A DNA stretch of 64,000 nucleotides. Origin: Bryobacterales bacterium. Lineage in GTDB: Bacteria; Acidobacteriota; Terriglobia; Bryobacterales; UBA6623. The translations under genes were made by a program, and so were the position numbers. The notes beneath the pieces were generated by a model. That model searched no databases, was not told the DNA's origin, and saw only the letters and a program-made list of their open reading frames with translations. The stretch is from positions 33,575 to 97,574 of the forward strand of contig JAPPMB010000041.1 of NCBI GenBank assembly GCA_028819255.1. The letters run 5' to 3'. Below, piece after piece: positions 2,767 to 42,790 of this stretch. The first letter of the stretch is position 1, and the number at the start of each line of letters is the position of its first letter.

Positions 2767-5382
2767 ATGACCCGCCTGCGATGGACGACGATCTCAGTCG
2801 TCCTCTGCCTCGTCCTTGTCGGCTGGATCTCGGTGGGAATCGCACGGGACGCAGGCCGGGAGGACTACCTGGCGCCAGACCTGAGGACGCGGGTGGAGGC
2901 GCTCAAGTCGGCTGCGCCTGACCAGCCGACGACCGCGGGCAACCTTGCCGACCGCCTCGACACGCTCTGGGCATGGATCAACGCGTATTCCCTGACCGGC
3001 GGGCCCATGCCGGTCAATGCGACACTCCAGATCGCCACGGCATACAGGGCAGTGGAGGCGCTTCGCCTTGAGGGCGGGCGGCCCACGCGAGGCGTGCTTG
3101 ACAGCGTGGACAGGTTGATCCACGAGTTCCGGCTCAAGGACGAGGTCCCGGGGGCCCTGGGAACGGTGGCCCTCGACACCGGCCGCCCTGTCCACGCCGG
3201 CTCGTGGGCCACCATCGAGCAGACCTACACCGTGGGAGAGACGCCGCTCGTTCCGGGGGCCAGGATCATGGTCGCGAGGCAGATGCAGGCCGACGGCGGG
3301 CGGCTGCAGCACAGCGACCCCGAAGCGGCGCACTACGTGTCGGCACGGACATCGAACCCGTCTGTGAGCCTAGGAAGGACCACGGTTCCATGGACGGGGA
3401 TGCATGGCGGCTTCCGCGCTCCCGTCCCGATGCCGACGTTTCAGGTCGAGAGCGGCACGCTCAGGTCCGGAGACACCCTGACCGTGGTTTACGGCGACCG
3501 CCAGGCGGGTTCTGAGGGCTGGCTCCAGCAGACGTTCGCGACTGACGAGGCCATGCTGCCGATCTACATCGACCTCGACGGGTCCGGTCACTTCCTTACG
3601 CCGCGATGGCCTGCGTACGAGGTTGTCGGCAACACCGCGGCGGGCGTGACCGCGGTCGTCCCATCCATTGTGAAACCCGGCGAGCCGTTCGACCTCTCAC
3701 TGCGCTGGGAGGATGACGCCGGCAACCGCGCGACAGGAGCCATGCCGGCGGCAACCGTCACGCTCGGAGACGCAAGGTTCCGCACGGTCGAGCCCGATGG
3801 GGATGCGGTTCACAGGATCGAGGCCATCACCTTGGACGAGGAAGGGGTCTACCGGTTCGGCGTTGAGAGCGCGGACGGAAGGATCAAGACGCTCAGCAAT
3901 CCGGTCTGGGTGCGCCGCAACCCGCCCTACCGCCTCTACTGGGGCGAGACCCACACCCACACCGGAATGGCCGAAGGCCAAGGCTCCATCGGCCGCTCGT
4001 ACCGGTTCGCCCGAGAGGACGCCCGGCTCGACTTCCTGGGGCTGTCCGAGCATGACATCTGGCTCGACGACGCGGAATGGCAGGCGATGAGACAGGCCGT
4101 GAGGACGAAGACCGTGCCGGGCGAGTTCGTTGCATTCCTGGGGTACGAATGGACACTTCGGCGGCGATGGGGGGGGCACCACAACGTTTTCTTCAGGAGG
4201 CCCGACTCCATGCGGGTCGGCGCGCAGAAGGCGCCGACCCTGACCGGGCTCTACGAGGGACTGCGGGCAAAGTACGGGACCAGGGACGTGCTGATCATTC
4301 CGCACGCGCACCAGGCCGGGGATTGGCGGACCAACGACCCTGAAATGGAAACGATGATCGAGATCATGTCGATGCATGGAACCTTCGAGTGGTTCGGCAA
4401 CTACTATCTCCGTCAGGGCCACCAGGTGGGTTTCCTTGCGGCGTCCGACGACCACCGCTCGCGGCCCGGGTACAGCTGGACATCGAACCGCCAGCCGAAT
4501 TCCTCGCTGAGCCAGTTCGGCGGTCTCGCGGCGGTCCAGGCGCCCGAGAAGACCGCCGACGCGATCTTCGACGCACTCAAGCGGCGCAGCGCCTATGCGG
4601 TGACCGACGCCCAGCGGATCATCCTGGAAATGGACGTGAATGGCACCGGGATGGGCAACCGCCTCGCCTACACGGACAGGCGCAGACTGCGCGCAAAGGT
4701 GGTGGGGACCGCCCCTATTCGCAGGCTTGCGGTGATCAAGAACGGCGAGACCGTGTACGCGAAGCGTCCGCTCCGGGCCTCGCTTGCCGGCAACGCGAGG
4801 CTCGTCGTCGGGTTCGAGTCCTCCTCGGAGCCTTTCTTCCGCGACAACCCCCGGGGGTACAGGCCCTGGGACGGAACGCTCACCGTCGAGGGCGCAAAGC
4901 TGGCTTCCATGCGGACCCTGCACTTCGACAACAGTCACAGGGAGTGGGCGAGGATCGAGGGGGAAGACCGAAACACGGTGCGGTTCAGCACGGACACCCG
5001 CGGTCAGGCCGACACGCTTCTGCTGGAACTCGAGGGAGCGTCACCGTCCACGACGGTGTCGTTCGACCTGGACGCCGCCCGCGAGTGGGGCAAGTCTCCG
5101 ACTCCCGTTCGGCAGCCCCGGGAGATCGCGGCCAAGCGATTTCGGGTCTCGCTCAGCGAGATGACCGACGGGTCCGCGACAAAGGACCTGTCCGACTCGA
5201 TCGACCGCGACGCGGTTACCGTCGAGCTGATCGGAGGAGACATGCCCATGGAGGCCGAACTCGACTACGCGGACACGGGCGACATGCAACCCGGCGACTA
5301 CTACTACGTGCGCGCGGACCAGCTTGACGGCGCGCGAGCGTACTCGTCGGCGGTGTGGGTCGGCGGCGAGTCGCGCCGCTGA
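2767..5382 (+). CDS. secreted/anchored DUF3604-like PHP-fold metal hydrolase (871 aa)
   Basis: N-terminal hydrophobic anchor TISVVLCLVLVGWISVGIA. Metal-binding style motifs YWGETHTHTGMAEG, LSEHD, IPHAHQAGDW, AASDDHRSRPG. C-terminal YYYVRADQLDGARAYSSAVWV. Confidence 0.7.
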   Translation: MTRLRWTTISVVLCLVLVGWISVGIARDAGREDYLAPDLRTRVEALKSAAPDQPTTAGNLADRLDTLWAWINAYSLTGGPMPVNATLQIATAYRAVEALRLEGGRPTRGVLDSVDRLIHEFRLKDEVPGALGTVALDTGRPVHAGSWATIEQTYTVGETPLVPGARIMVARQMQADGGRLQHSDPEAAHYVSARTSNPSVSLGRTTVPWTGMHGGFRAPVPMPTFQVESGTLRSGDTLTVVYGDRQAGSEGWLQQTFATDEAMLPIYIDLDGSGHFLTPRWPAYEVVGNTAAGVTAVVPSIVKPGEPFDLSLRWEDDAGNRATGAMPAATVTLGDARFRTVEPDGDAVHRIEAITLDEEGVYRFGVESADGRIKTLSNPVWVRRNPPYRLYWGETHTHTGMAEGQGSIGRSYRFAREDARLDFLGLSEHDIWLDDAEWQAMRQAVRTKTVPGEFVAFLGYEWTLRRRWGGHHNVFFRRPDSMRVGAQKAPTLTGLYEGLRAKYGTRDVLIIPHAHQAGDWRTNDPEMETMIEIMSMHGTFEWFGNYYLRQGHQVGFLAASDDHRSRPGYSWTSNRQPNSSLSQFGGLAAVQAPEKTADAIFDALKRRSAYAVTDAQRIILEMDVNGTGMGNRLAYTDRRRLRAKVVGTAPIRRLAVIKNGETVYAKRPLRASLAGNARLVVGFESSSEPFFRDNPRGYRPWDGTLTVEGAKLASMRTLHFDNSHREWARIEGEDRNTVRFSTDTRGQADTLLLELEGASPSTTVSFDLDAAREWGKSPTPVRQPREIAAKRFRVSLSEMTDGSATKDLSDSIDRDAVTVELIGGDMPMEAELDYADTGDMQPGDYYYVRADQLDGARAYSSAVWVGGESRR

Positions 5383-10963: not shown

Positions 10964-13939
10964 TCAGGGCCCCTGGGAGATCCAGATGGGGCTCGACCAG
11001 GCCAGTTCGCCGTCCCGCTGCTCGACCCTCACGTAGTACCAGTGGTCCCCGGGACCGGCCTCGACATCGAGATATTCGAACTCGGCCTCCTGCGTGCCGG
11101 GCTCGACCTTGTAGACGTAGGCTGCGTCGCGGATCAAGTGAATCGCGGCGATTTCGTCGGTGCCCCGCACCCTGACAACGGCCCTCTGCGGACCTGATGA
11201 GGCCGTCTCCTCGCCCATGAATGCCGCGCCCAGACGGAAGTCCAGGACGATGTTGTCCGTCGCGCCGTAGGTCCGCCTCTTGCGGATCGCGTTGTGGATC
11301 GCCTCGCGGCTGGTGTCCGGCGTGTAGACCATCGCGTACGAAATGTGGGTCGAGTAGTGATCCGAACTCGCGATGACACCGATCCTGTAGCCCTTCTTCC
11401 AGGCGTTCCAGAGCATTCCCGGCTCCTGGAAGCCGCCGGCCGCCTGGCCCTCCTCCCCGTCGCGGATCCCCCTGGGTGCGTTCTTGTGCTCGTAGTTCTG
11501 GCGGGCTCCCTGGTAGATCTCCGCAACCGTGTCCACTGCGGGATCGTTGTCGCGCCAGTCGGTGCCCATCGAGTCCGTCCCGGAAGTGTGGGGGATTGCC
11601 AGGCCGTTCGTCTGCCGGGCGACGTCGTAGAGGAGTTTCGTCTCGTTGCGCACGCCGCTGCCGAATCCCATGGAGCTGAACGTCAGCAGCTCGCCGTCCG
11701 GGCTGTCCGGCAGGATGAACCGCGGATGGGCCGGAATGAAGAACGGCACGATCGGGTAGTTGCGGTGCGTGTAGATGAGGTTGCGATGGCCGAAAGGATT
11801 GCCGGGATTCCGCTCGTAGCCGTACAGGGTCGAGAAGCGCTCCGGAAAGTGGTACATGTCCGCCATCTTCTGGGTCATCGCATTCCAGAAGTCGGTGCCT
11901 CCGGCCTGGTGGTCCGTCGAGGCGCCGAAGTCCATTTCGGCGGCATCGATCATGTAGCGGTAGAACTCCGGAAGCGATCCGTCGCTCATGCCGCCCACGT
12001 CCTGGGAGAGCTCGGTGTGCCGGTGAAGGTCGCCCCGCACGATGCGCAGCGTCTCGCCCGCGTGCCCGACCCGGTAGTTGCGGATGAAGCGAACGTCGTC
12101 GGGCTCGGTGGGGTGCGGGTCCGGCCGGACCTCTGCGGGCTCCGGCCGGTACGGTCTCAGCCGCGGCGCGGCTCCCGGACCGGGGAGTTCGAGCGAACCG
12201 GCGACCACCCGGTTCAGGCGGGGCCGGCTGGCAAAGGCCCAGCGACGGCTCTCGTGCGGCCAGAATGCCCAGAGGCGCCCCTCCGCGATGGCCGTCCCCA
12301 TGCGGGTGCTCTTGCGCGCCCAGCTGAGGGGCAGCGTGATGGGCTCGCTCCAGCGCTGCCCGTCCAGACGCGTCAGGAAGGACTCCCAGTACGAGGTCGG
12401 CCGGTAGGACTGCCGGCTGTACCGCCGCTTGAAGGACATCCAGAGGTTGCCGTCCGGGTCGAAGAAGAGCCCGGGCCGGCTCTCGCCCGTCGTCCCGGCC
12501 GCCTGAGGGTCGCCGAAGGCCACCTCGGCAGGCGTCTTCCACTGGCCGCCGTCGTAGCAGACGACCTCGACCCGCCGCGCCGACCCCAGGGGCGTCCCGG
12601 GCTGGGGCTCTCCGAGGCCCCGGCCGAGATCCTTGCCCCAGTGCACGCCGGAGGTCTCCCACGCAACCCAGGGCCGGCCCTGCGCGTCCACCGCCACGCT
12701 GGAATGGGCTTCAAACCGGGCGGTCGACGCGACAGGCATCTCGGGGCCGAGACCGCCCCCCTGCGAGTACTCGCGGACGAGGACGTCGTAGCTGCCCCCC
12801 GAACCCTTCCTGTAGCGGTCCCACGCGATCCACGCGGATCCGTTCGGAGCGGCGGCGACGGAGGGGGACCAGTCGTTCGCAGCGGATGCGGTCACGGAAA
12901 CGGTTTCCGACCAGCGACCGTCGCGCAGGTGCTTGAGGCGAATCTGCGAGTGGCGCCCCGCCATCGACTGCCAGACCACGTAGATCGTGCCGTCATCCGC
13001 CCGGGCGACCTGCGGCTCGATGTCCGGGAGGGGATTGTCCGTGAGCCGATGCTGCCGGCCCCATTCGTCGTCCTCCCAGGCCATGGCGAAGATGTCCCAG
13101 TTGCCGGGCCCGTCGGCGGCTGGCCGCTGGGAATAGACCAGCCACGGCTTGTCCGCGGCATCGACTGCGATCTGCGGACGCCACAGGTCCTCGGCCGCCC
13201 GGCCGACGGGAATTAGGCGGGACCAGCGCTCCTCGTGGAAGCGACGGAAGTTGAGCTCCTCGCGCCGGTCGTGATAGCTGTACCAGGTCGCGAACAGATT
13301 CCCCTTCGAGTCTGCGGCGATGGCCGGCGAGTCGTGCTGGCGCAGCTCCGTTCCGGAAAGATCCGTCGCTGGCGGGGTGCGCTGGATCGCGACGCGGCCG
13401 CCGACGAACCGCGACCAGGGGCCAAACTCGAGAGCCACGGGCTGAAACGAGAAATCGCCGTGCACCGTGGTCACCGAAACCGTCGTCGAGGCGTTTCCGC
13501 TGCCACGCACCCAAAGCCCCTTCGGCATGGGCTCCACGCGGTGCCGCGGATCCGGCCGCGCCACGACGCCCGACCGGAGCAGGATCCTCACGTCCTGCGT
13601 CGTCAGCCGCCAGCCCCCCTGGGGCAGAATCCGGTCGGGCGGCTCCTGCCTGTGCGGATCGATGCCGAGGATCTCGCCTCCCCGGATCGACAGGCTGCCG
13701 TCCCACGACTCGCCCGCCCCGTCCCCAACCCCAAACAGGATCAGCACCTGCCACATGTCGGCTTCCCGGGTGCCTCCCGGGTGCCACGTGAAGTTGTCGA
13801 GAAAGTCGGGGGTGGCCGCCGCGGCGGCCCCCGACTGCACAGGCTCCGCCCGCTGGGGCGCCGCGGGCGCCAGGAGCGCGACCGCCAGGAAGGGGACCAG
13901 AAAGACGGTCGGAGCGGGACGGTTGATGCGATGGCACAC
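10964..13939 (-). CDS. secreted beta-propeller + PHP-like metal hydrolase (991 aa), paralogous to 2767..5382
   Basis: GTG start preceded by GGAGG. Signal peptide FLVPFLAVALLAPAAP. Repeated xxGxxWxxW blades (KGNLFATWYS, DKPWLVYS, GTIYVVWQS, GSAWIAWD, GRPWVAWE). PHP-like DLHRHTELS, ASTDHQ, IPHTSGTD, ASSDHYSTH. C-terminal HWYYVRVEQRDGELAWSSPIWI. Confidence 0.7.
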   Translation of the reverse strand: MCHRINRPAPTVFLVPFLAVALLAPAAPQRAEPVQSGAAAAATPDFLDNFTWHPGGTREADMWQVLILFGVGDGAGESWDGSLSIRGGEILGIDPHRQEPPDRILPQGGWRLTTQDVRILLRSGVVARPDPRHRVEPMPKGLWVRGSGNASTTVSVTTVHGDFSFQPVALEFGPWSRFVGGRVAIQRTPPATDLSGTELRQHDSPAIAADSKGNLFATWYSYHDRREELNFRRFHEERWSRLIPVGRAAEDLWRPQIAVDAADKPWLVYSQRPAADGPGNWDIFAMAWEDDEWGRQHRLTDNPLPDIEPQVARADDGTIYVVWQSMAGRHSQIRLKHLRDGRWSETVSVTASAANDWSPSVAAAPNGSAWIAWDRYRKGSGGSYDVLVREYSQGGGLGPEMPVASTARFEAHSSVAVDAQGRPWVAWETSGVHWGKDLGRGLGEPQPGTPLGSARRVEVVCYDGGQWKTPAEVAFGDPQAAGTTGESRPGLFFDPDGNLWMSFKRRYSRQSYRPTSYWESFLTRLDGQRWSEPITLPLSWARKSTRMGTAIAEGRLWAFWPHESRRWAFASRPRLNRVVAGSLELPGPGAAPRLRPYRPEPAEVRPDPHPTEPDDVRFIRNYRVGHAGETLRIVRGDLHRHTELSQDVGGMSDGSLPEFYRYMIDAAEMDFGASTDHQAGGTDFWNAMTQKMADMYHFPERFSTLYGYERNPGNPFGHRNLIYTHRNYPIVPFFIPAHPRFILPDSPDGELLTFSSMGFGSGVRNETKLLYDVARQTNGLAIPHTSGTDSMGTDWRDNDPAVDTVAEIYQGARQNYEHKNAPRGIRDGEEGQAAGGFQEPGMLWNAWKKGYRIGVIASSDHYSTHISYAMVYTPDTSREAIHNAIRKRRTYGATDNIVLDFRLGAAFMGEETASSGPQRAVVRVRGTDEIAAIHLIRDAAYVYKVEPGTQEAEFEYLDVEAGPGDHWYYVRVEQRDGELAWSSPIWISQGP

Positions 13940-13996: not shown

Positions 13997-14078
13997 GCCG
14001 CCTTCGGAACGCGCCGATTGTACCTTGACGGATCTGCGCCGCCGGTAGAGGCCTGCCCGGAGCCGCCTTCGGAACGCG
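13997..14078. repeat. two exact 17-bp direct repeats GCCGCCTTCGGAACGCG (13997-14013 and 14062-14078)
   Basis: Read directly. They are 65 bp apart, upstream of the 991-aa gene and at the left edge of the low-GC islet. Confidence 0.85.
14017..14026. repeat. left copy of 10-bp direct repeat ATTGTACCTT bracketing the low-GC islet
   Basis: Exact match to 16088-16097. It lies about 60 bp before the composition drop. Confidence 0.6.
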
Positions 14079-16087
14079 GAGATTTTCTCCGAAGACCGTA
14101 CTCACTTAGGCAGTCGTAGGTCTTTATGTTAACAGTATTGCGTATAGAACTGCCCACTTGCAGAACGCTTGAAGTGCATGGCAGTTTCGAACAAACTACC
14201 TTGAGTCGATACCAAGGGCACGCCACAACATCGGATGTACCAAGACCTTAACACCGTGCGAAATTTGGGACTTTGAGACAGTTCTAGAATCCAATGTCGA
14301 CCACTGTGCTGTTTCAAACGATTCCAATTTCAGTCCTATTAAGCCGGCACGATAATACCCTTGAAGTATCGTGTTTCTGACATATTCAATGTCCACCAAT
14401 GCATCGACAAGACGAGTTGCTGCTTTCGAAAATGGATCACCATTCTCTGTAGATGGATGATCAATACAGAATCCTATACAGACTTCCTCAATAATTTCGC
14501 GCTTGATATCATCCGCTAGAAATGTCGCTTTTCGTGACTTAATAAGTCGAGTAAAGTATAATAAATGAGGGTAATCGGAAACCCATTCATCGGCAAGTGA
14601 CCTTAGACGATTTTTGGAGTATAATCCTTCTGCATCCCGAATTATCTGCACACTGATTCGTGGCCGATTGACGGCTTTTGCAATGCAACAGTTAAAAAAC
14701 ATAATGACATCCCGAGGACGCATCATCGTGCGCCGCAATAAGTATCTTAGCGATGGCTGGCCATCAATTTGAGTCGGTAAGAGATCTCTGTGTGTTACAG
14801 ATTGCTTGGTATACCTTCGCCTTATTAGGTGATTGATTCTTAGGTTGAGCATTTGCTCTAAGGTGTTTTCCGTCCAACTAATCGGCAAATATAATGACTC
14901 ATATTTCTCTTCTTGAAAGCCCGTATCGCGTGTGACTTGAAACACTTTCTCTATTAGATCGATCCGTAACGCGATTACAATTTTTGCATTCCTAATTCGT
15001 CGAAAATCTTTGACAGTTTCGATTAGTGCTCGAATCAGCCGATATCGAAGCCTATCTTCAATCCAGTTTTCGTCTAGATTATCTAAGACAATAAAGTAGT
15101 GTTTTTGGCGATCCGACAAGACCTTGTCAGTTAGATCAATAATATCGGATAACTGTCGGATTTGGACTGCATTCACCACGCGCTGTGCTCTCTTAATGAT
15201 TTGTCCTTTTGCGGTAGCTATGTGCTTATCAGTCGCGCCGACATCAAACTGTATGCTAGGAAACAGAGCTCTGACGGAGGTTTTTAAGTCTTCTTCTAGC
15301 TTCTCCGTAACTTCCTTGATCCGATATTCTGTCTCCTGCCAGAATTTACTCCCCCAATTCTCAAGGTATTGCAGGGCTTTCTTTTCTTTATCGTCTAGAA
15401 AAAGACTTCGGATCTGTTGGATGAATGTGTTCTTAGGAGATCCGTCTAATATATGAAAGTGTAGCTTGATAAGTTCGACGGTGAAAACGTGACGCCAGAG
15501 GAGCTTAAAAAAGATGTCTAGTTTTACACCAAGGTTATCAAAAAAGTTCAATATTGTAGAATTAGAAATATAACTCAAGGCAAGACTTTCTGGTCGAATA
15601 TCGATGACTCGTTCCTCGGTAGCCGAAAGTCTTTTCAATAATGCGGTTTTCCCAGATCCCGTCCTTCCGACAACAATACTGCGAGGGTCAGAACAATCAG
15701 ACAGTACTCTCAGGTGTCCAGTGTCGACGAAACATTGGGCTAAAAAATCGAAATCTTCTTCGGCAGCAGCCACGCCTATCGAGTCAAGTTGCCTGAAACG
15801 GAATTTATCCTTCTTCCCTACTTTCTGAATTGGTCGTTTCGGCATGTTACTGTAGTGGTTTATCAGTGATCACGCTTCGAGTGAGGCGAATAACGAGAGG
15901 CACTCCTCCAAGTCCAATCTTCCCTAAGAGACATTGGCTCGCCAAAGGGAGAAACATCGCTGGTTTGGAACACAACATCCGTGCTGCCGTGAATCAACGC
16001 CTTCTCTGTTGCGCCTCGAACGTTTAGGTCGCTGGGCGGTGAAGACAAGGCGAAATTCTCTACTCATCTGAACGACCGACCGAGACC
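14027..16087. other. compositionally foreign low-GC islet (cargo-only insertion, no mobility gene)
   Basis: Counted G+C is 42% in lines 14341-14400 and 15001-15060, against 82% (13801-13860) and 77% (16501-16560) in the flanks. The islet holds a single gene and is bracketed by the 10-bp repeat. Confidence 0.7.
14196..15845 (-). CDS. orphan P-loop NTPase (AAA+/STAND-like, possibly Sll1717-type ATPase), 549 aa
   Basis: Walker A IVVGRTGSGKTALL (nt 15645-15668). Walker B HYFIVLDNLDENW (nt 15069-15095). KIVIALR strand, then MRPRDVIMFFN (sensor/arginine motif of Orc1/STAND-like ATPases). Helical C-terminal ~170 aa with no recognisable effector domain. Confidence 0.8.
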   Translation of the reverse strand: MPKRPIQKVGKKDKFRFRQLDSIGVAAAEEDFDFLAQCFVDTGHLRVLSDCSDPRSIVVGRTGSGKTALLKRLSATEERVIDIRPESLALSYISNSTILNFFDNLGVKLDIFFKLLWRHVFTVELIKLHFHILDGSPKNTFIQQIRSLFLDDKEKKALQYLENWGSKFWQETEYRIKEVTEKLEEDLKTSVRALFPSIQFDVGATDKHIATAKGQIIKRAQRVVNAVQIRQLSDIIDLTDKVLSDRQKHYFIVLDNLDENWIEDRLRYRLIRALIETVKDFRRIRNAKIVIALRIDLIEKVFQVTRDTGFQEEKYESLYLPISWTENTLEQMLNLRINHLIRRRYTKQSVTHRDLLPTQIDGQPSLRYLLRRTMMRPRDVIMFFNCCIAKAVNRPRISVQIIRDAEGLYSKNRLRSLADEWVSDYPHLLYFTRLIKSRKATFLADDIKREIIEEVCIGFCIDHPSTENGDPFSKAATRLVDALVDIEYVRNTILQGYYRAGLIGLKLESFETAQWSTLDSRTVSKSQISHGVKVLVHPMLWRALGIDSR

Positions 16088-16097
16088 ATTGTACCTT
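16088..16097. repeat. right copy of 10-bp direct repeat ATTGTACCTT
   Basis: Exact match to 14017-14026. It lies at the point where composition returns to GC-rich. Confidence 0.6.
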
Positions 16098-16309
16098 AGG
16101 CGATGTCACGATGGCTAGCGTATGGTGTGGGGGTCCTTGCTAGCTTAGTGGTACGTCTCAGACCACTGCGCACCAACGCGGGCCTCTCCGGATAGGGCCG
16201 GATCCTTGGACAATACGGACTTCGCGGATGCAACGCCACTGTCTACGTAACGCCTGCTTGCTTGGCTCCCAATCGCAGTCGCCGATCTGATTGCCGGCCA
16301 GACGCCCGG

Positions 16310-17431
16310 CTACAGCCCGGTCTCTAGCCAGCCTCGCTTGGCGGCCGAGGCCTCGATCGCCGCCAGCACGCGCTGTACACTCAGACCGTCCTCGAACGTG
16401 GGCCGTGCCGGCTCGCCGGACTCCAGCCCGGCGAGAAAGTCGGCCAGCGAGCTGGTGAACGTGTGCTCGTACCCGATCGGATGGCCGGGCTTCCAGTAGT
16501 AGGGATCCGCGGGCGGTCCCGGCGAGGGCGCGAGAACTCTCCGCGTTCCGCGCAGGTCCGGGTCGCCGCCGGCGTCGGCGTACTCGAGCCGGTTCATGTG
16601 CTCGAAATGAAACTCGACCATGCCCTTCTCGCCGTGAACCACAAAGCTGTTGTCGTTCTGATAGCCCGTCGCAAAGCGGGTGGCCTCGAACGTCCCGAGC
16701 ACACCGCTCCGGAACCGCGCCTGCACCAGCACGACGTCGTCGATGTCGATCGCGTACGTCTCCCCCGGGCGGTCGGGATCGGGCTTTTCCGGAAGGATGG
16801 TCTCGAACGTGGCGGAAAGTTCGCGAATCGGGCCAAGCAGCATCATGGCGGTGTCGAGCAGGTGTGAGTTCAGGTCGCCGTTGACGCCCGACCCGGCCGT
16901 GCTCCTGGACATCTTCCAGCTCCTTGGGCGGCTCGGGTCGGGCCCCCACTGCTGCAGATACTGGGCGCGGTACTGATAGATCCGGCCCAGCCGGCCCTCC
17001 TCGATCAGTCGTCTCGCCAGCTCCACGGCCGGCACGCGCCGATAGTTGAACCAGACGAACGTCGGAACCCGCGAGGCTGCCGAGACCATCGCGCGCGCCT
17101 CCTCAAGGCTGTTGGCGAGGGGCTTCTCGCAGAGCACCATCTTTCCCGCGCGGGCCGCAGCGACGGCCATTTCGGCGTGCAGGTAGTTCGGCGTACAGAT
17201 GTCGACAGCGTCGATGTCCGGGCGGTCGATGACGCGGCGCCAGTCGGTCTCAACCTCCTCCCATCCCCACGCGTCGGCTAGCGCCTCGAGACCGGCGCGG
17301 CTGCGTCCGCAAACCACTCGCCGCCTCACCTTGGGAACGTGCGGGAAGAAATGCCCCACCTGGGCGTAGGCGTTGCTGTGCGCCTTGCCCACGAAGCCGT
17401 AGCCGATCATGGCGACATTGAGCGCGCCCAT
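16310..17431 (-). CDS. Gfo/Idh/MocA family oxidoreductase
   Basis: N-terminal Rossmann VAMIGYGFVGKAHSNAY, EKPLA motif (LCEKPLANS). 373 aa. Confidence 0.85.
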   Translation of the reverse strand: MGALNVAMIGYGFVGKAHSNAYAQVGHFFPHVPKVRRRVVCGRSRAGLEALADAWGWEEVETDWRRVIDRPDIDAVDICTPNYLHAEMAVAAARAGKMVLCEKPLANSLEEARAMVSAASRVPTFVWFNYRRVPAVELARRLIEEGRLGRIYQYRAQYLQQWGPDPSRPRSWKMSRSTAGSGVNGDLNSHLLDTAMMLLGPIRELSATFETILPEKPDPDRPGETYAIDIDDVVLVQARFRSGVLGTFEATRFATGYQNDNSFVVHGEKGMVEFHFEHMNRLEYADAGGDPDLRGTRRVLAPSPGPPADPYYWKPGHPIGYEHTFTSSLADFLAGLESGEPARPTFEDGLSVQRVLAAIEASAAKRGWLETGL

Positions 17432-40938: not shown

Positions 40939-41054
40939 GCTTCAGCTTAACACTCGTGCGGGCCGTGTCATTCGCTCTGTGAGAGCGCTGTCCGCGATCT
41001 TGCGCCGCCATCCTCGTTCCTGGCCGGGCTGGAAGGCCAGCGGAAAGAAGGAAG

Positions 41055-41083
41055 ATGACGAAGACACTGCGTTGGTGTATAAT
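41055..41083 (+). promoter_or_regulatory. sigma70-like promoter candidate for the NYN gene
   Basis: Perfect TATAAT at 41078-41083. ATGACG (4/6 to TTGACA) at 41055-41060 with a 17-nt spacer. The predicted start gives a ~34-nt leader to ATG 41124. Confidence 0.35.
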
Positions 41084-41123
41084 CTCCTCAGTCGGCTGTT
41101 CAGACAACCCTTACCATCTCAGT

Positions 41124-42623
41124 ATGCAGATGCCAACCCACAATGAGCCATTGCGATCAGCTGTATTCGTGGACTTCGATAATATATTTATTGGATTACG
41201 GGATGACTATGGAGAGAAGATTGCGAACTATTTTGCGACCAATCCAAATCGGTGGTTGGACTGGATATCTCGAATTCCGAATGATAGGGTCAGCTCTGAT
41301 ATCACTCGACGAGTGATTCTGAGAAAATGCTATTTGAATCCTGCAGCGTTTTCGCAGTTTCGCATTGATTTTGTTCGCGCCGCATTTGAGGTCGTTGACT
41401 GCCCGTCACTGACAGCGCAGGGGAAAAGTTCTGCAGACATTCACATGGTCCTTGATATCATCGATGCTCTAGAACAGAAGCCGACTTTCGAGGAGTTCAT
41501 TTTGATGTCTGCAGATTCGGACTTTTCACCGGTCCTGCTCCGCCTCAGGCGATTTGATCGACGATTGATGGTAATTACGCCAAGTGATGCCTCAAAGGCA
41601 TATACTCAGATTGCAGATACTGTAATTGAATCAGATGACTTTGTAACGCAAGCGCTAGAGGCTCATGGCCTAGAAGGGAATGTAGATGCGCATGATCAGC
41701 ACCGACTTAGACAGCTTGCCGAGAAACTCGAAGACTCGATTACTAGGAATGATGGGTCTATTCTAAGACACCAAGTCCATGCCGTGTTTAAGAATGAGGC
41801 TGATTTTGCGGAGAGCAACTGGTATGGATTCTACAGTTCAATTGCCCTTGTGAATGCCTTGGTGAGCCAGAACCGACGACTAGTGGTTGTTAGGAAAAGC
41901 GATGAACCGTGGTCAGTTGAATTGCGCAGTCTCACTGTGAGAAGCTCACGTAGTCCCGATATAGTGGAGGAAATTGATCAATTCATAAAGTCCCAATTAT
42001 CACTTGCGTCCCAACCTATATCCGGTGCATCCTTGGCCCATACTCTGCAGCAACGATTTCCCAGACAGACGTGGTTCGGATTTCCAAATTTCGGCTCGTT
42101 CATCGAGGATTCTGTGAGAAGGATTGGGCTAAAATACGACAAGGCGGGAAGTCACGACGTTATCTGGGATCCCGAGCGCCATCAGCCACCACCAATACAA
42201 ACGGACGATTCGAGTAGAAATCATCTGATCGGTAGAGAACATACCGACCTACATGAGTTTGTTCAGCGTCTCCATAGGAATTACAATATTCCCCCACTCC
42301 GCTCAAGAGTATATTGCCGGATTTTTGAAGTTATTCTAGAATCTGTATCATCAAAGGGTTTCTTCCATGTGAACACGACGTCAAAGCATGTCCGTGATCG
42401 ATTAGTTACAGAAGGGTATTCCGTCAGCAGAAAAGCGATCCACTTTATCCTCCGAGGTCTACAGAACGAAAATCTCAACTTTGAAGAGTATCAAAGCCTT
42501 AAGGCAATTGATCTAGCAACGCGTTTCAGTTCCAATATATCCAAACTAGTCAACACTTCCCACGTTAAACTGAGCCGCAGGGAACAGATGATGATTGAGG
42601 ATTGGATTCTTCCACGAGCATAG
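41124..42623 (+). CDS. NYN (LabA-like, PIN-fold) ribonuclease domain protein with ~320-aa helical C-terminal extension (OST-HTH/LOTUS-like repeats?)
   Basis: AVFVDFDN, GKSSADIHMVLDIIDAL and FILMSADSDFSPVLLRLRR are the conserved Asp positions of NYN. The ORF is open from 41055, but that ATG sits in the putative -35, so I prefer ATG 41124. No clear RBS. Confidence 0.75.
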   Translation: MQMPTHNEPLRSAVFVDFDNIFIGLRDDYGEKIANYFATNPNRWLDWISRIPNDRVSSDITRRVILRKCYLNPAAFSQFRIDFVRAAFEVVDCPSLTAQGKSSADIHMVLDIIDALEQKPTFEEFILMSADSDFSPVLLRLRRFDRRLMVITPSDASKAYTQIADTVIESDDFVTQALEAHGLEGNVDAHDQHRLRQLAEKLEDSITRNDGSILRHQVHAVFKNEADFAESNWYGFYSSIALVNALVSQNRRLVVVRKSDEPWSVELRSLTVRSSRSPDIVEEIDQFIKSQLSLASQPISGASLAHTLQQRFPRQTWFGFPNFGSFIEDSVRRIGLKYDKAGSHDVIWDPERHQPPPIQTDDSSRNHLIGREHTDLHEFVQRLHRNYNIPPLRSRVYCRIFEVILESVSSKGFFHVNTTSKHVRDRLVTEGYSVSRKAIHFILRGLQNENLNFEEYQSLKAIDLATRFSSNISKLVNTSHVKLSRREQMMIEDWILPRA

Positions 42624-42790
42624 TCGTGAACATTGTGGTCGGCGATCACCTCGGCCAAGGATTCGGTCAGCCTGCGGACTATCCCTGGAATTCGCGCTAC
42701 TATGGCTCCTCGTGCATCGGACCAATGCCTGCTGCCGGATCGGCACCGGGCAGGCAAGACCATTCCATTGTCAGGACATGTGTGCCTCGT

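Follow-up and report, generated by a model that had tools for sequence, protein, structure and literature searches.

The closest tested relative of the protein discussed here is DS-41 ('AAA2', WP_033812887.1), a 502-residue Escherichia coli protein encoded by a single-gene transcription unit and found by DefensePredictor (DeWeirdt, Mahoney & Laub, Science 2026; PMC13092281). When DS-41 was cloned together with its own promoter, several BASEL phages plated less well, with log10 efficiency-of-plating reductions of 3.6 for Bas63, 2.3 for Bas19 and 1.4 for Bas25, and the protein was assigned by remote homology to Avs1B (PMC13092281). The same study lists WP_000026497.1, a 557-residue protein of E. 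coli and Klebsiella IncF plasmids, as a 'Predicted novel defense gene' with a mean log-odds of 14.7 (range 13.4–16.3) against a stringent cutoff of 4; in the accessible parts of the supplementary text this protein does not appear among the cloned systems (PMC13092281). Here we describe a gene of the same family in a 64,000-nucleotide stretch of contig JAPPMB010000041.1 (Bryobacterales bacterium, Acidobacteriota, assembly GCA_028819255.1), referred to below as the window. It is an open reading frame (ORF) at 14196..15845 on the minus strand, with an ATG start and its stop codon at 14196–14198, and encodes a 549-residue P-loop ATPase that is 100% identical to OXN97_07050, a protein of a Bryobacterales metagenome-assembled genome (MAG) annotated as hypothetical. 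Taken together, the analyses presented here indicate that this is probably a laterally acquired single-gene defence ATPase of the Sll1717 family, directed against phages or, more widely, against mobile elements.

Family membership

The NCBIfam model NF047389 ('P-loop ATPase, Sll1717 family') recognizes the window protein at 216.2 bits (cutoff 75, E 9e-64), in an end-to-end alignment of residues 24–544 with model positions 2–454 of 454, and both Walker motifs are intact (GRTGSGK66T and hhhhD255xLD258E259). A 399-residue fragment of DS-41 (of 502) scores 92.2 bits on the same model, above its cutoff, and DS-41 and the window protein thus belong to one NCBIfam family. An earlier note on this DNA, made from its letters alone, had likened the protein to Sll1717-type P-loop ATPases, and correctly so. 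Its description of the protein as an orphan, on the other hand, has to be abandoned: at least 2,028 homologues are found at E<1e-5, and when 1.84 billion cluster representatives (50% identity) were searched exhaustively, 3,787 clusters matched at E<1e-3, of which 805 reached E<1e-30. Among the best 150 clusters nearly all members measure 530–593 residues, the few shorter ones being truncated entries, and none of the 150 carries an added domain. The Sll1717 family is already named, counts thousands of members, and includes one relative validated as anti-phage and one clade-mate predicted to be so; no paper on Sll1717 turned up in the literature collection that was searched.

A defence role for the gene in the window appears quite probable from this analysis. 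It is suggested, first, by the family membership shared with DS-41 and by the log-odds of 14.7 of the clade-mate WP_000026497.1, and second, by the behaviour of the family in genomes, where its genes are foreign DNA everywhere, travel on plasmids and proviruses, and lie in defence or mobile islands in about one third of the annotated neighbourhoods. The proposal in the earlier note of a single-gene defence candidate is therefore upheld at the level of the family, by DS-41, by the predictor score of WP_000026497.1 and by genomic context.

Other curated families fit less well. The DS-41 equivalog model NF053860 ('DS41_1_antiphage') requires 370 bits, and the window protein reaches 51.7 (E 6.6e-14), which makes it a homologue, not an equivalog, of DS-41. 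The Pfam models for STAND-type NTPases remain below their thresholds (nSTAND3, 20.4 bits versus 27.2, over residues 225–306; NACHT, 15.7 versus 26.7; AAA_16, 19.6 versus 32.6), and the tripartite STAND architecture of effector, NTPase and TPR/WD40/LRR sensor is absent, the structural model placing a lid and a 128-residue α/β domain beyond the NTPase core. The Orc1/Cdc6 model TIGR02928 reaches 13.8 bits against 181.3 (E 0.019), and the KAP model PF07693 14.8 bits against 20, the insertion described below occupying the same position as the KAP transmembrane helices but being soluble. Among ABC/SMC-type families, AriA matches the P-loop region only (E 0.003) and ABC_tran at E 0.2, and the window protein contains no ABC signature (LSGGQ-like) motif. 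No Pfam family reaches its gathering threshold. The window protein seems to work most like a STAND/AAA+ defence switch, yet it stands outside those curated families.

Protein architecture

Conservation was followed in an alignment of the window protein with 37 homologues of 50–66% identity (38 sequences in total), on which a full-length AlphaFold2 model was also built (predicted local distance difference test score, pLDDT, 83.8; predicted template modelling score, pTM, 0.80), a confident prediction. The Walker A motif or P-loop, GRTGSGKT (residues 60–67, 15645..15668, minus strand as for all features of this gene), follows a strand at residues 57–59, and its G60, G63, G65 and K66 are invariant in the alignment. 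In the Walker B motif, YFIVLDNLDE (residues 250–259, 15069..15098), whose strand spans residues 250–254 in the model, D255, L257 and D258 are invariant and E259 is conserved in at least 90% of sequences. The placement of both motifs in the earlier note, with Lys66 in GRTGSGKT and with FIVLDNLDE at 251–259, holds across the 38 sequences. The unusually long spacing between them that it had pointed out is real in the window protein: 189 residues separate K66 from D255, because about 160 residues forming an entirely helical insertion (85–245, 15111..15593, from the model's secondary structure) are interposed between strand β2 (residues 80–83) and the Walker B strand. The insertion contains the invariant motifs LLWRH (about residues 115–119) and WGxxFW...RI (164–176), and its residues 85–130 are better conserved than any other part of the protein, with a majority-residue frequency of 0.84 and 12 invariant columns, compared with 0.70 for the P-loop region.

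Beyond Walker B, residues 287–315 (14901..14987) comprise the sensor-1 strand KIVIALRIDL, a helix with R300/R306 and an invariant GFQEEKY loop. The invariant columns of this region are R294, D296, Q311, E313 and K314; the model assigns a strand to residues 287–293 and a helix to residues 295–305, and the KIVIALR strand terminates at R294. The NTPase core is followed by a helical AAA+-type lid (approximately residues 326–421), one helix of which bears a sensor-2-like motif, R372...M-R-P377-R378-D379...N385 (14691..14732), with R372, P377, R378, D379 and N385 invariant. KIVIALR and MRPRD, which the earlier note had likened to sensor and arginine motifs of Orc1/Cdc6- and STAND-like ATPases, are thus in place, with R294, P377, R378 and D379 invariant; the protein falls short of the thresholds of those two families.

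What had been taken for a C-terminal helical domain of some 170 residues is in the model the lid together with a separate α/β domain of 128 residues (422–549, 14199..14582), which when predicted on its own gave a pLDDT of 90.1. This domain is the least conserved part of the protein, at 0.50 overall and 0.39 for residues 441–485, and it belongs to the family architecture, since the NF047389 model covers it. As the earlier note had it, no effector or transmembrane segment is recognizable: no 19-residue Kyte–Doolittle window exceeds 1.6 (maximum 1.12), and Pfam, PADLOC and NCBIfam scans of the window protein detected no repeat-type sensor or effector family. The window protein is a P-loop NTPase with a full set of catalytic and sensor motifs, without an enzymatic effector domain and without a partner gene.

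Comparison with described systems

DS-41 resembles the window protein in being a single gene of roughly 500–550 residues with neither effector domain nor partner, and in both the lead-in is followed by Walker A, a long helical insertion, Walker B (hhhhDxLDE), the sensor-1 strand and a lid with an (S/R)PR(E/D) motif, the NF047389 model covering both through the C-terminal part. They differ in that DS-41 is 47 residues shorter, and in that phage protection was measured for DS-41 whereas for the window's clade it is predicted only. Nearer to the window protein stands WP_000026497.1, which scores 534 bits on a hidden Markov model (HMM) of the window's clade and 212.8 bits on NF047389, and shares 36% identity with it across 99% of the length. 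This clade of solo proteins of about 545 residues, which also includes a Paludibaculum fermentans member, has the same length, motifs and solo architecture throughout and departs from the window protein in sequence divergence only, the window copy being acidobacterial and set in a metabolic context.

A sister clade of about 686 residues (proteins P0270–P0389) is widespread in Gammaproteobacteria and present in the Klebsiella phage-plasmid GArcari-2022b (locus L081, 4986–7052). It matches NF047389 at 249.7 bits over residues 6–472, gives sub-threshold Pfam ORC-CDC6-like matches, and shares with the window protein the ATPase, the lid, the C-terminal module and a terminal HPxxW motif; its helical insertion is shorter, and it possesses an extra conserved C-terminal module of about 210 residues that the window protein lacks. 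This module matches the PADLOC candidate PDC-M36A (E 1e-14) and contains a D559...E586-x-K588 pattern conserved at 90% or above, and Pfam and PDB searches with it gave no match. From this pattern the module may be PD-(D/E)xK-like, and so a candidate nuclease effector.

The Sll1717 family has no solved structure. A profile search of PDB sequences for such a relative gave P-loop-level matches only, and Foldseek comparison of the full model with the PDB returned distant, generic AAA+/STAND-like matches (E ~1e-4, query-normalised TM-score 0.17–0.36). They include HslU, BrxC and RdrA, in all of which an insertion likewise separates the two Walker motifs, as well as the archaeal ATPase Sso1545 (target-normalised TM-score 0.52), Orc/Cdc6 and MalT. 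A search of BFVD likewise produced generic AAA, KAP and clamp-loader matches. For the C-terminal domain, the notion of a recognizable effector or winged helix found no significant Foldseek match (best E 0.81), the weak ones being mostly winged-helix proteins (Fur, MecI, PadR, TFE-alpha, the ORC2 winged-helix domain at E 5.4, RosR).

The best structural matches, BrxC of BREX, RdrA of RADAR and HslU, share the large insertion between the Walker motifs with the window protein, but they work with partners (BrxB/PglZ, RdrB and HslV, respectively), whereas the window gene has no conserved partner, and their TM-scores are low (0.17–0.36). STAND/AVAST NTPases (Avs1–5, nSTAND) have in common with it the P-loop, the arginine ending the sensor-1 strand, the helical lid with a small domain next to it, and a variable C-terminus. 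Canonical STANDs, however, lack the 160-residue insertion in the NTPase core, and the window protein, unlike them, has no TPR/WD40/LRR sensor and no N-terminal effector.

A single-gene insertion in a Bryobacterales genome

The strongest feature of the locus, absent from the earlier note, is an island of about 2 kb with approximately 44% GC inside a 68% GC genome. Its low-GC core (37–52% GC in composition profiles) extends over 14085..16100, and the ATPase is its only ORF, with a GC content at third codon positions (GC3) of 0.41 compared with 0.83–0.89 for four neighbours. These flanking genes encode a CehA/McbA-domain protein of 991 residues (start at 13939), a levoglucosan-dehydrogenase-like oxidoreductase (stop at 16310), a rhamnulokinase and a HisJ-family phosphatase. 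A metagenome search with the 991-residue flank uncovered the corresponding empty site in four contigs (L073, L074, L079 and L080), whose flanking proteins are 78–83% identical and retain the order RhaK, oxidoreductase, 991-residue gene, with HisJ upstream as well in L073. In these four sites the oxidoreductase and 991-residue genes lie approximately 170–215 bp apart with no ATPase between them, as opposed to 2,370 bp in the window, so that some 2.15–2.2 kb have been inserted. The Bryobacterales genome has thus gained one intact gene in the spacer that separates two of its metabolic genes.

The proximal junction falls near 14075–14090, marked by an increase in GC and by the onset of similarity to the spacer of the empty sites (CGCGTTCC...GGTACAATCGGsCCGTTCC), and the distal one is placeable only within 16100–16310. 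A direct repeat of 10 nt (repeat family D7), ATTGTACCTT, which reads AAGGTACAAT on the gene strand, occurs twice: its distal copy (16088..16097) lies where the GC content changes at the far end of the insert, and its proximal copy (14017..14026) is located in the host-like GGTACAATCGGsCCGTTCC, a single-copy sequence upstream of the 991-residue gene in the empty sites. The TACAAT of this repeat is also the -10 element of the sole promoter-like match upstream of the ATPase, a coincidence for which a rough estimate gives p ~0.02. The repeat could be a target-site or attachment (att) remnant. Target-site duplications were, however, discarded as a feature of the family at large: at 60 other loci the longest direct repeats flanking the gene average 10.1 nt, as against 9.8 nt in displaced controls, and the repeat in the window is for that reason only an unproven lead. 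At one other locus (L006, an Acidobacteriota MAG) the ATPase homologue lies between two identical 26-nt direct repeats, GGTAAGTGGCGTCCTGGGCGGCGGCG, at distances of about 683 nt on the upstream side and 334 nt on the downstream side; far longer than any control pair, they may represent a true att or duplication site of that island.

Integration linked to a tRNA was considered and set aside, the window containing no tRNA gene; no convincing terminal inverted repeats of the island were found, and no recombinase accompanies it. The non-coding region upstream of the ATPase comprises 464 bp (15846..16309), in which the promoter scan yielded a single, weak sigma-70-like match on the minus strand (16117–16088, TAGCCA-18-TACAAT); no Shine-Dalgarno-like sequence precedes the gene, and an Rfam scan of the island gave no match.

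The spacer upstream of the 991-residue gene additionally holds a 23-nt direct repeat, GCCGCCTTCGGAACGCGsmGATT (plus strand, 13997–14019 and 14062–14084). Related CGsGTTCC elements flank the GGTACAAT motif in the four empty-site contigs, making the repeat a native feature of the host spacer, outside the insert, and possibly a regulatory one for the 991-residue gene.

A second solo low-GC island occurs at approximately 41050–42650 (42–50% GC versus about 66%), with a single 522-residue ORF (41055–42623, plus strand, GC3 0.46) that has an N-terminal NYN/LabA-like RNase domain (PF01936, E 3e-17) followed by about 320 residues without family match. It was considered as a paralogue of the ATPase and found to be unrelated (BLASTP E 2.4). 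This ORF repeats the pattern of one foreign gene with no recombinase and may be another defence-type nuclease.

Distribution and neighbourhoods of homologues

For an analysis of context, 67 homologous loci were drawn from species-representative genomes. They are scattered patchily over at least ten phyla, including Acidobacteriota, Planctomycetota, Verrucomicrobiota, Pseudomonadota, Myxococcota and Chloroflexota, with Nitrospirota, Eremiobacterota and Saccharimonadales also represented. Identity to the window protein is 49–77% for the listed homologues, the nearest of which (59–77%) keep its length and motifs, and 36–42% for proteobacterial and plasmid copies. At every locus for which composition could be compared the gene stands out as foreign: its GC content is below that of its flanks in 64 of 64 (mean difference 13.8 points), and its GC3 below that of the flanking genes in 54 of 54 (0.46 versus 0.71), and since GC3 is lowered as well the effect is not merely one of amino-acid composition. 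Gene GC3 nonetheless correlates with host GC3 (r = 0.62), which suggests partial amelioration or transfer between hosts of like composition.

No partner travels with the gene, as the earlier note had surmised from the window, where the ATPase is alone in its island. All-versus-all clustering of flanking ORFs of at least 70 residues found no shared neighbour, the largest cluster extending to 7 of the 67 loci at varying distance and orientation; clustering of ORFs of at least 25 residues gave syntenic triplets only, with no conserved small ORF; and blastn between the upstream regions of the loci, including the 464 bp of the window, found no conserved upstream element. Together with the Rfam result, these searches led us to reject a hidden partner gene or RNA.

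A nearest-neighbour scan of 114 proteins met defence-type genes, namely MmeI-type IIG enzymes (3), type I restriction-modification (R-M) subunits, components of MADS (mad2 in 4 cases, mad3 and mad8), PDC-S14 and DrmD, together with a pentapeptide-TIR protein, GlnRS, an IF-2B family protein, ribonucleotide reductase and UvrA. The pentapeptide-repeat protein, in a Limisphaerales MAG (L001, 8768–9946, plus strand), has a C-terminal TIR domain (TIR_2, E 5.6e-20) and lies directly upstream of the ATPase homologue, on the same strand and across a 60-bp gap. It is the only TIR neighbour seen, and is consistent with the adjacency of such ATPases to TIR-like effectors mentioned in the earlier note.

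Precomputed Pfam annotation allowed the neighbourhoods of nine loci to be classified. Three qualify clearly as defence or mobile islands, one with DruA, three transposases, a reverse transcriptase and a serine recombinase, another with an integrase trio, GmrSD and a type IIG enzyme, and the third with a type I R-M system, a Schlafen/AlbA_2 protein, an HNH protein and AbiEii; two are ambiguous and the other four ordinary. The published values to set beside this 3 of 9 are 17% among known defence genes and 2% among genes at large (PMC13092281).

Relatives with 36–42% identity over the full length are found on 169 plasmids, 60 of them conjugative, amid replication, partition and integrase genes, insertion sequence (IS) elements, VapBC and ParDE. 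Among the plasmid hits, those of the Klebsiella pneumoniae IncF type (H9–H22, often at record position 3674–5309) show the gene in three tblastn pieces, and in many Klebsiella plasmids the split copies are annotated as three hypothetical proteins, while those of E. coli and Citrobacter plasmids are intact; this points to recurrent or inherited pseudogenisation. Relatives also occur in 33 IMG/VR viral contigs, in PHROG 13260 (function unknown) and in a phage-plasmid. Three of the six closest viral relatives (L089, L090 and L093; 35–42% identity) lie within 400 bp of a predicted provirus end, the more distant ones being uniformly spread; this position could reflect cargo at prophage ends or imprecise provirus boundaries.

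Weighing the defence reading and its alternatives

Several findings weigh against a defence role and temper the confidence placed in it. Judged by sequence, DS-41 is a remote relative of the window protein: it scores 19.8 bits on the HMM of the window's clade, and a profile comparison of the two aligns only the lid (ISW...SPRELI with ISW...MRPRDVI, the DS-41 segment being SPRELIKLCD). The log-odds of WP_000026497.1 is not independent of the composition evidence, because DefensePredictor takes relative GC as a feature (PMC13092281). PADLOC v2.0.0 (2023), one of the defence-gene scans envisaged in the earlier note, gave only weak and partial matches (PDC-M28C, E 2.9e-6 over residues 219–333; mad8, E 2.9e-5). 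Neighbourhoods, which that note had expected to be informative, answer in both directions: to the three defence or mobile islands must be opposed the four ordinary metabolic contexts of the nine, and that of the window itself, and an enrichment at the ends of proviruses or viral contigs was sought and is absent overall, with 9 genes observed within 2 kb where 7.6 are expected. The many Klebsiella plasmid copies broken in three indicate that the gene is often dispensable. Finally, the weak Foldseek matches hint, without statistical support, that the modelled C-terminal domain may be winged-helix-like.

The alternative that survives best is that the gene is cargo of mobile elements and serves the element that carries it, by excluding plasmids or phages, by addiction or stabilisation, or in conflicts between elements, the chromosomal copy in the window then being a stranded remnant. 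Relatives on 169 plasmids, near replication, partition and integrase genes, toxin–antitoxin pairs and IS elements, would fit such a role, as would those in 33 viral contigs and a phage-plasmid, the integrases and transposases adjoining several homologues, and the position of three of the six closest viral relatives within 400 bp of a provirus end. Much of this evidence is shared, however, since many defence systems are themselves element cargo and the two explanations overlap heavily. Moreover, most of the 67 loci, like the window, include no recombinase or other element gene, and the broken Klebsiella copies speak against a role in plasmid maintenance, leaving this explanation distinctly improbable.

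Less probable still is that the gene is silent baggage, a recent and unameliorated insertion that is not expressed (for example, as silenced AT-rich DNA) and has no current role in this host. The mismatch in GC3 (0.41 against about 0.86) would be expected on this view, as would the missing Shine-Dalgarno-like sequence and the single weak promoter-like match upstream; the insertion is recent, since relatives with about 80% identity in the flanking proteins do not have it, and pseudogenised copies exist elsewhere. Against this, the ORF is intact over 549 codons of AT-rich DNA, where stops arise easily, all invariant family residues are kept, and the nearest relatives (59–77% identity) have the same length and motifs; and silence in one host would leave the function of the protein unchanged.

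That the protein is an Orc1/Cdc6-like or 'DNA repair' AAA+ ATPase, binding DNA through a C-terminal winged helix and serving replication initiation, loading or repair for an element or the host, is highly unlikely, for although database entries call the plasmid copies 'DNA repair protein' or 'ATPase involved in DNA repair', TIGR02928 (E 0.019) and, in the sister clade, Pfam ORC-CDC6-like match below threshold, and Foldseek returns Orc/Cdc6, Sso1545 and weak winged-helix-like C-terminal matches, these matches are far under their thresholds (TIGR02928, 13.8 versus 181 bits), the TM-scores are low (0.2–0.36), the C-terminal domain has no significant match, no origin-like repeats or partner genes are present, the patchy and always foreign distribution is unlike that of a replication or repair factor, and the closest tested relative is an anti-phage protein.

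A possible mechanism

If the gene is a defence ATPase, as we favour, a tentative scheme of its action can be drawn, which as a whole is open to considerable doubt. The window protein would idle as an inactive monomer until its variable C-terminal domain recognizes a phage-derived cue, protein or nucleic acid; being the least conserved part of the protein, that domain fits a sensor better than an effector. NTP binding would then drive oligomerisation of the AAA+/STAND type via R294, the R300/R306-GFQEEKY region and the MRPRD lid motif. The first half of the helical insertion (LLWRH and its neighbours), which is extremely conserved, would serve as an output surface acting on a conserved target, stopping phage replication. 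In the sister clade of about 686 residues output would be delegated to the fused PD-(D/E)xK-like module, while in the solo clades, those of the window protein and of DS-41, it would reside in the ATPase itself, or a universal host factor would be recruited. The Sll1717 family would thus behave like a sensor/switch NTPase able to drive a fused effector, and the precedent of DS-41 indicates that the ATPase alone may suffice. The window ATPase might act by abortive infection, which the earlier note had raised, or equally by direct interference.

A bolder version, which we regard as unlikely in its entirety, holds that solo Sll1717 ATPases are complete immune systems, in which the ultra-conserved insertion, displayed on an NTP-driven oligomer, takes the place of an enzyme domain as the effector, and which may spread as naked cassettes. 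Such an oligomer might act on a conserved component of replication or packaging, by sequestering or remodelling it, or might form a coat on nucleic acid, and the always AT-rich single-gene cassettes may move independently of recombinases, here landing at a promoter-like TACAAT element duplicated at both ends. To our knowledge, a killing or blocking mode of this kind has not yet been described for STAND/AAA+ defence proteins, and an insertion-displaying oligomer would, if the proposal is true, be a new one among them.

Significance

Taken alone, the gene in the window matters little, as it belongs to a named family with a validated relative and a clade-mate flagged by a published predictor. The locus extends the Sll1717 family to Acidobacteriota with a clean before-and-after, a single-gene insertion whose empty site is kept in relatives, and the survey of homologues documents the family as AT-richer than its host in each genome examined. 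Beyond this, the combination of a conserved insertion, a variable C-terminus and a sister clade that appears to bear an effector leads to hypotheses on how effector-less ATPases such as DS-41, and similar solo NTPases, may defend their hosts.

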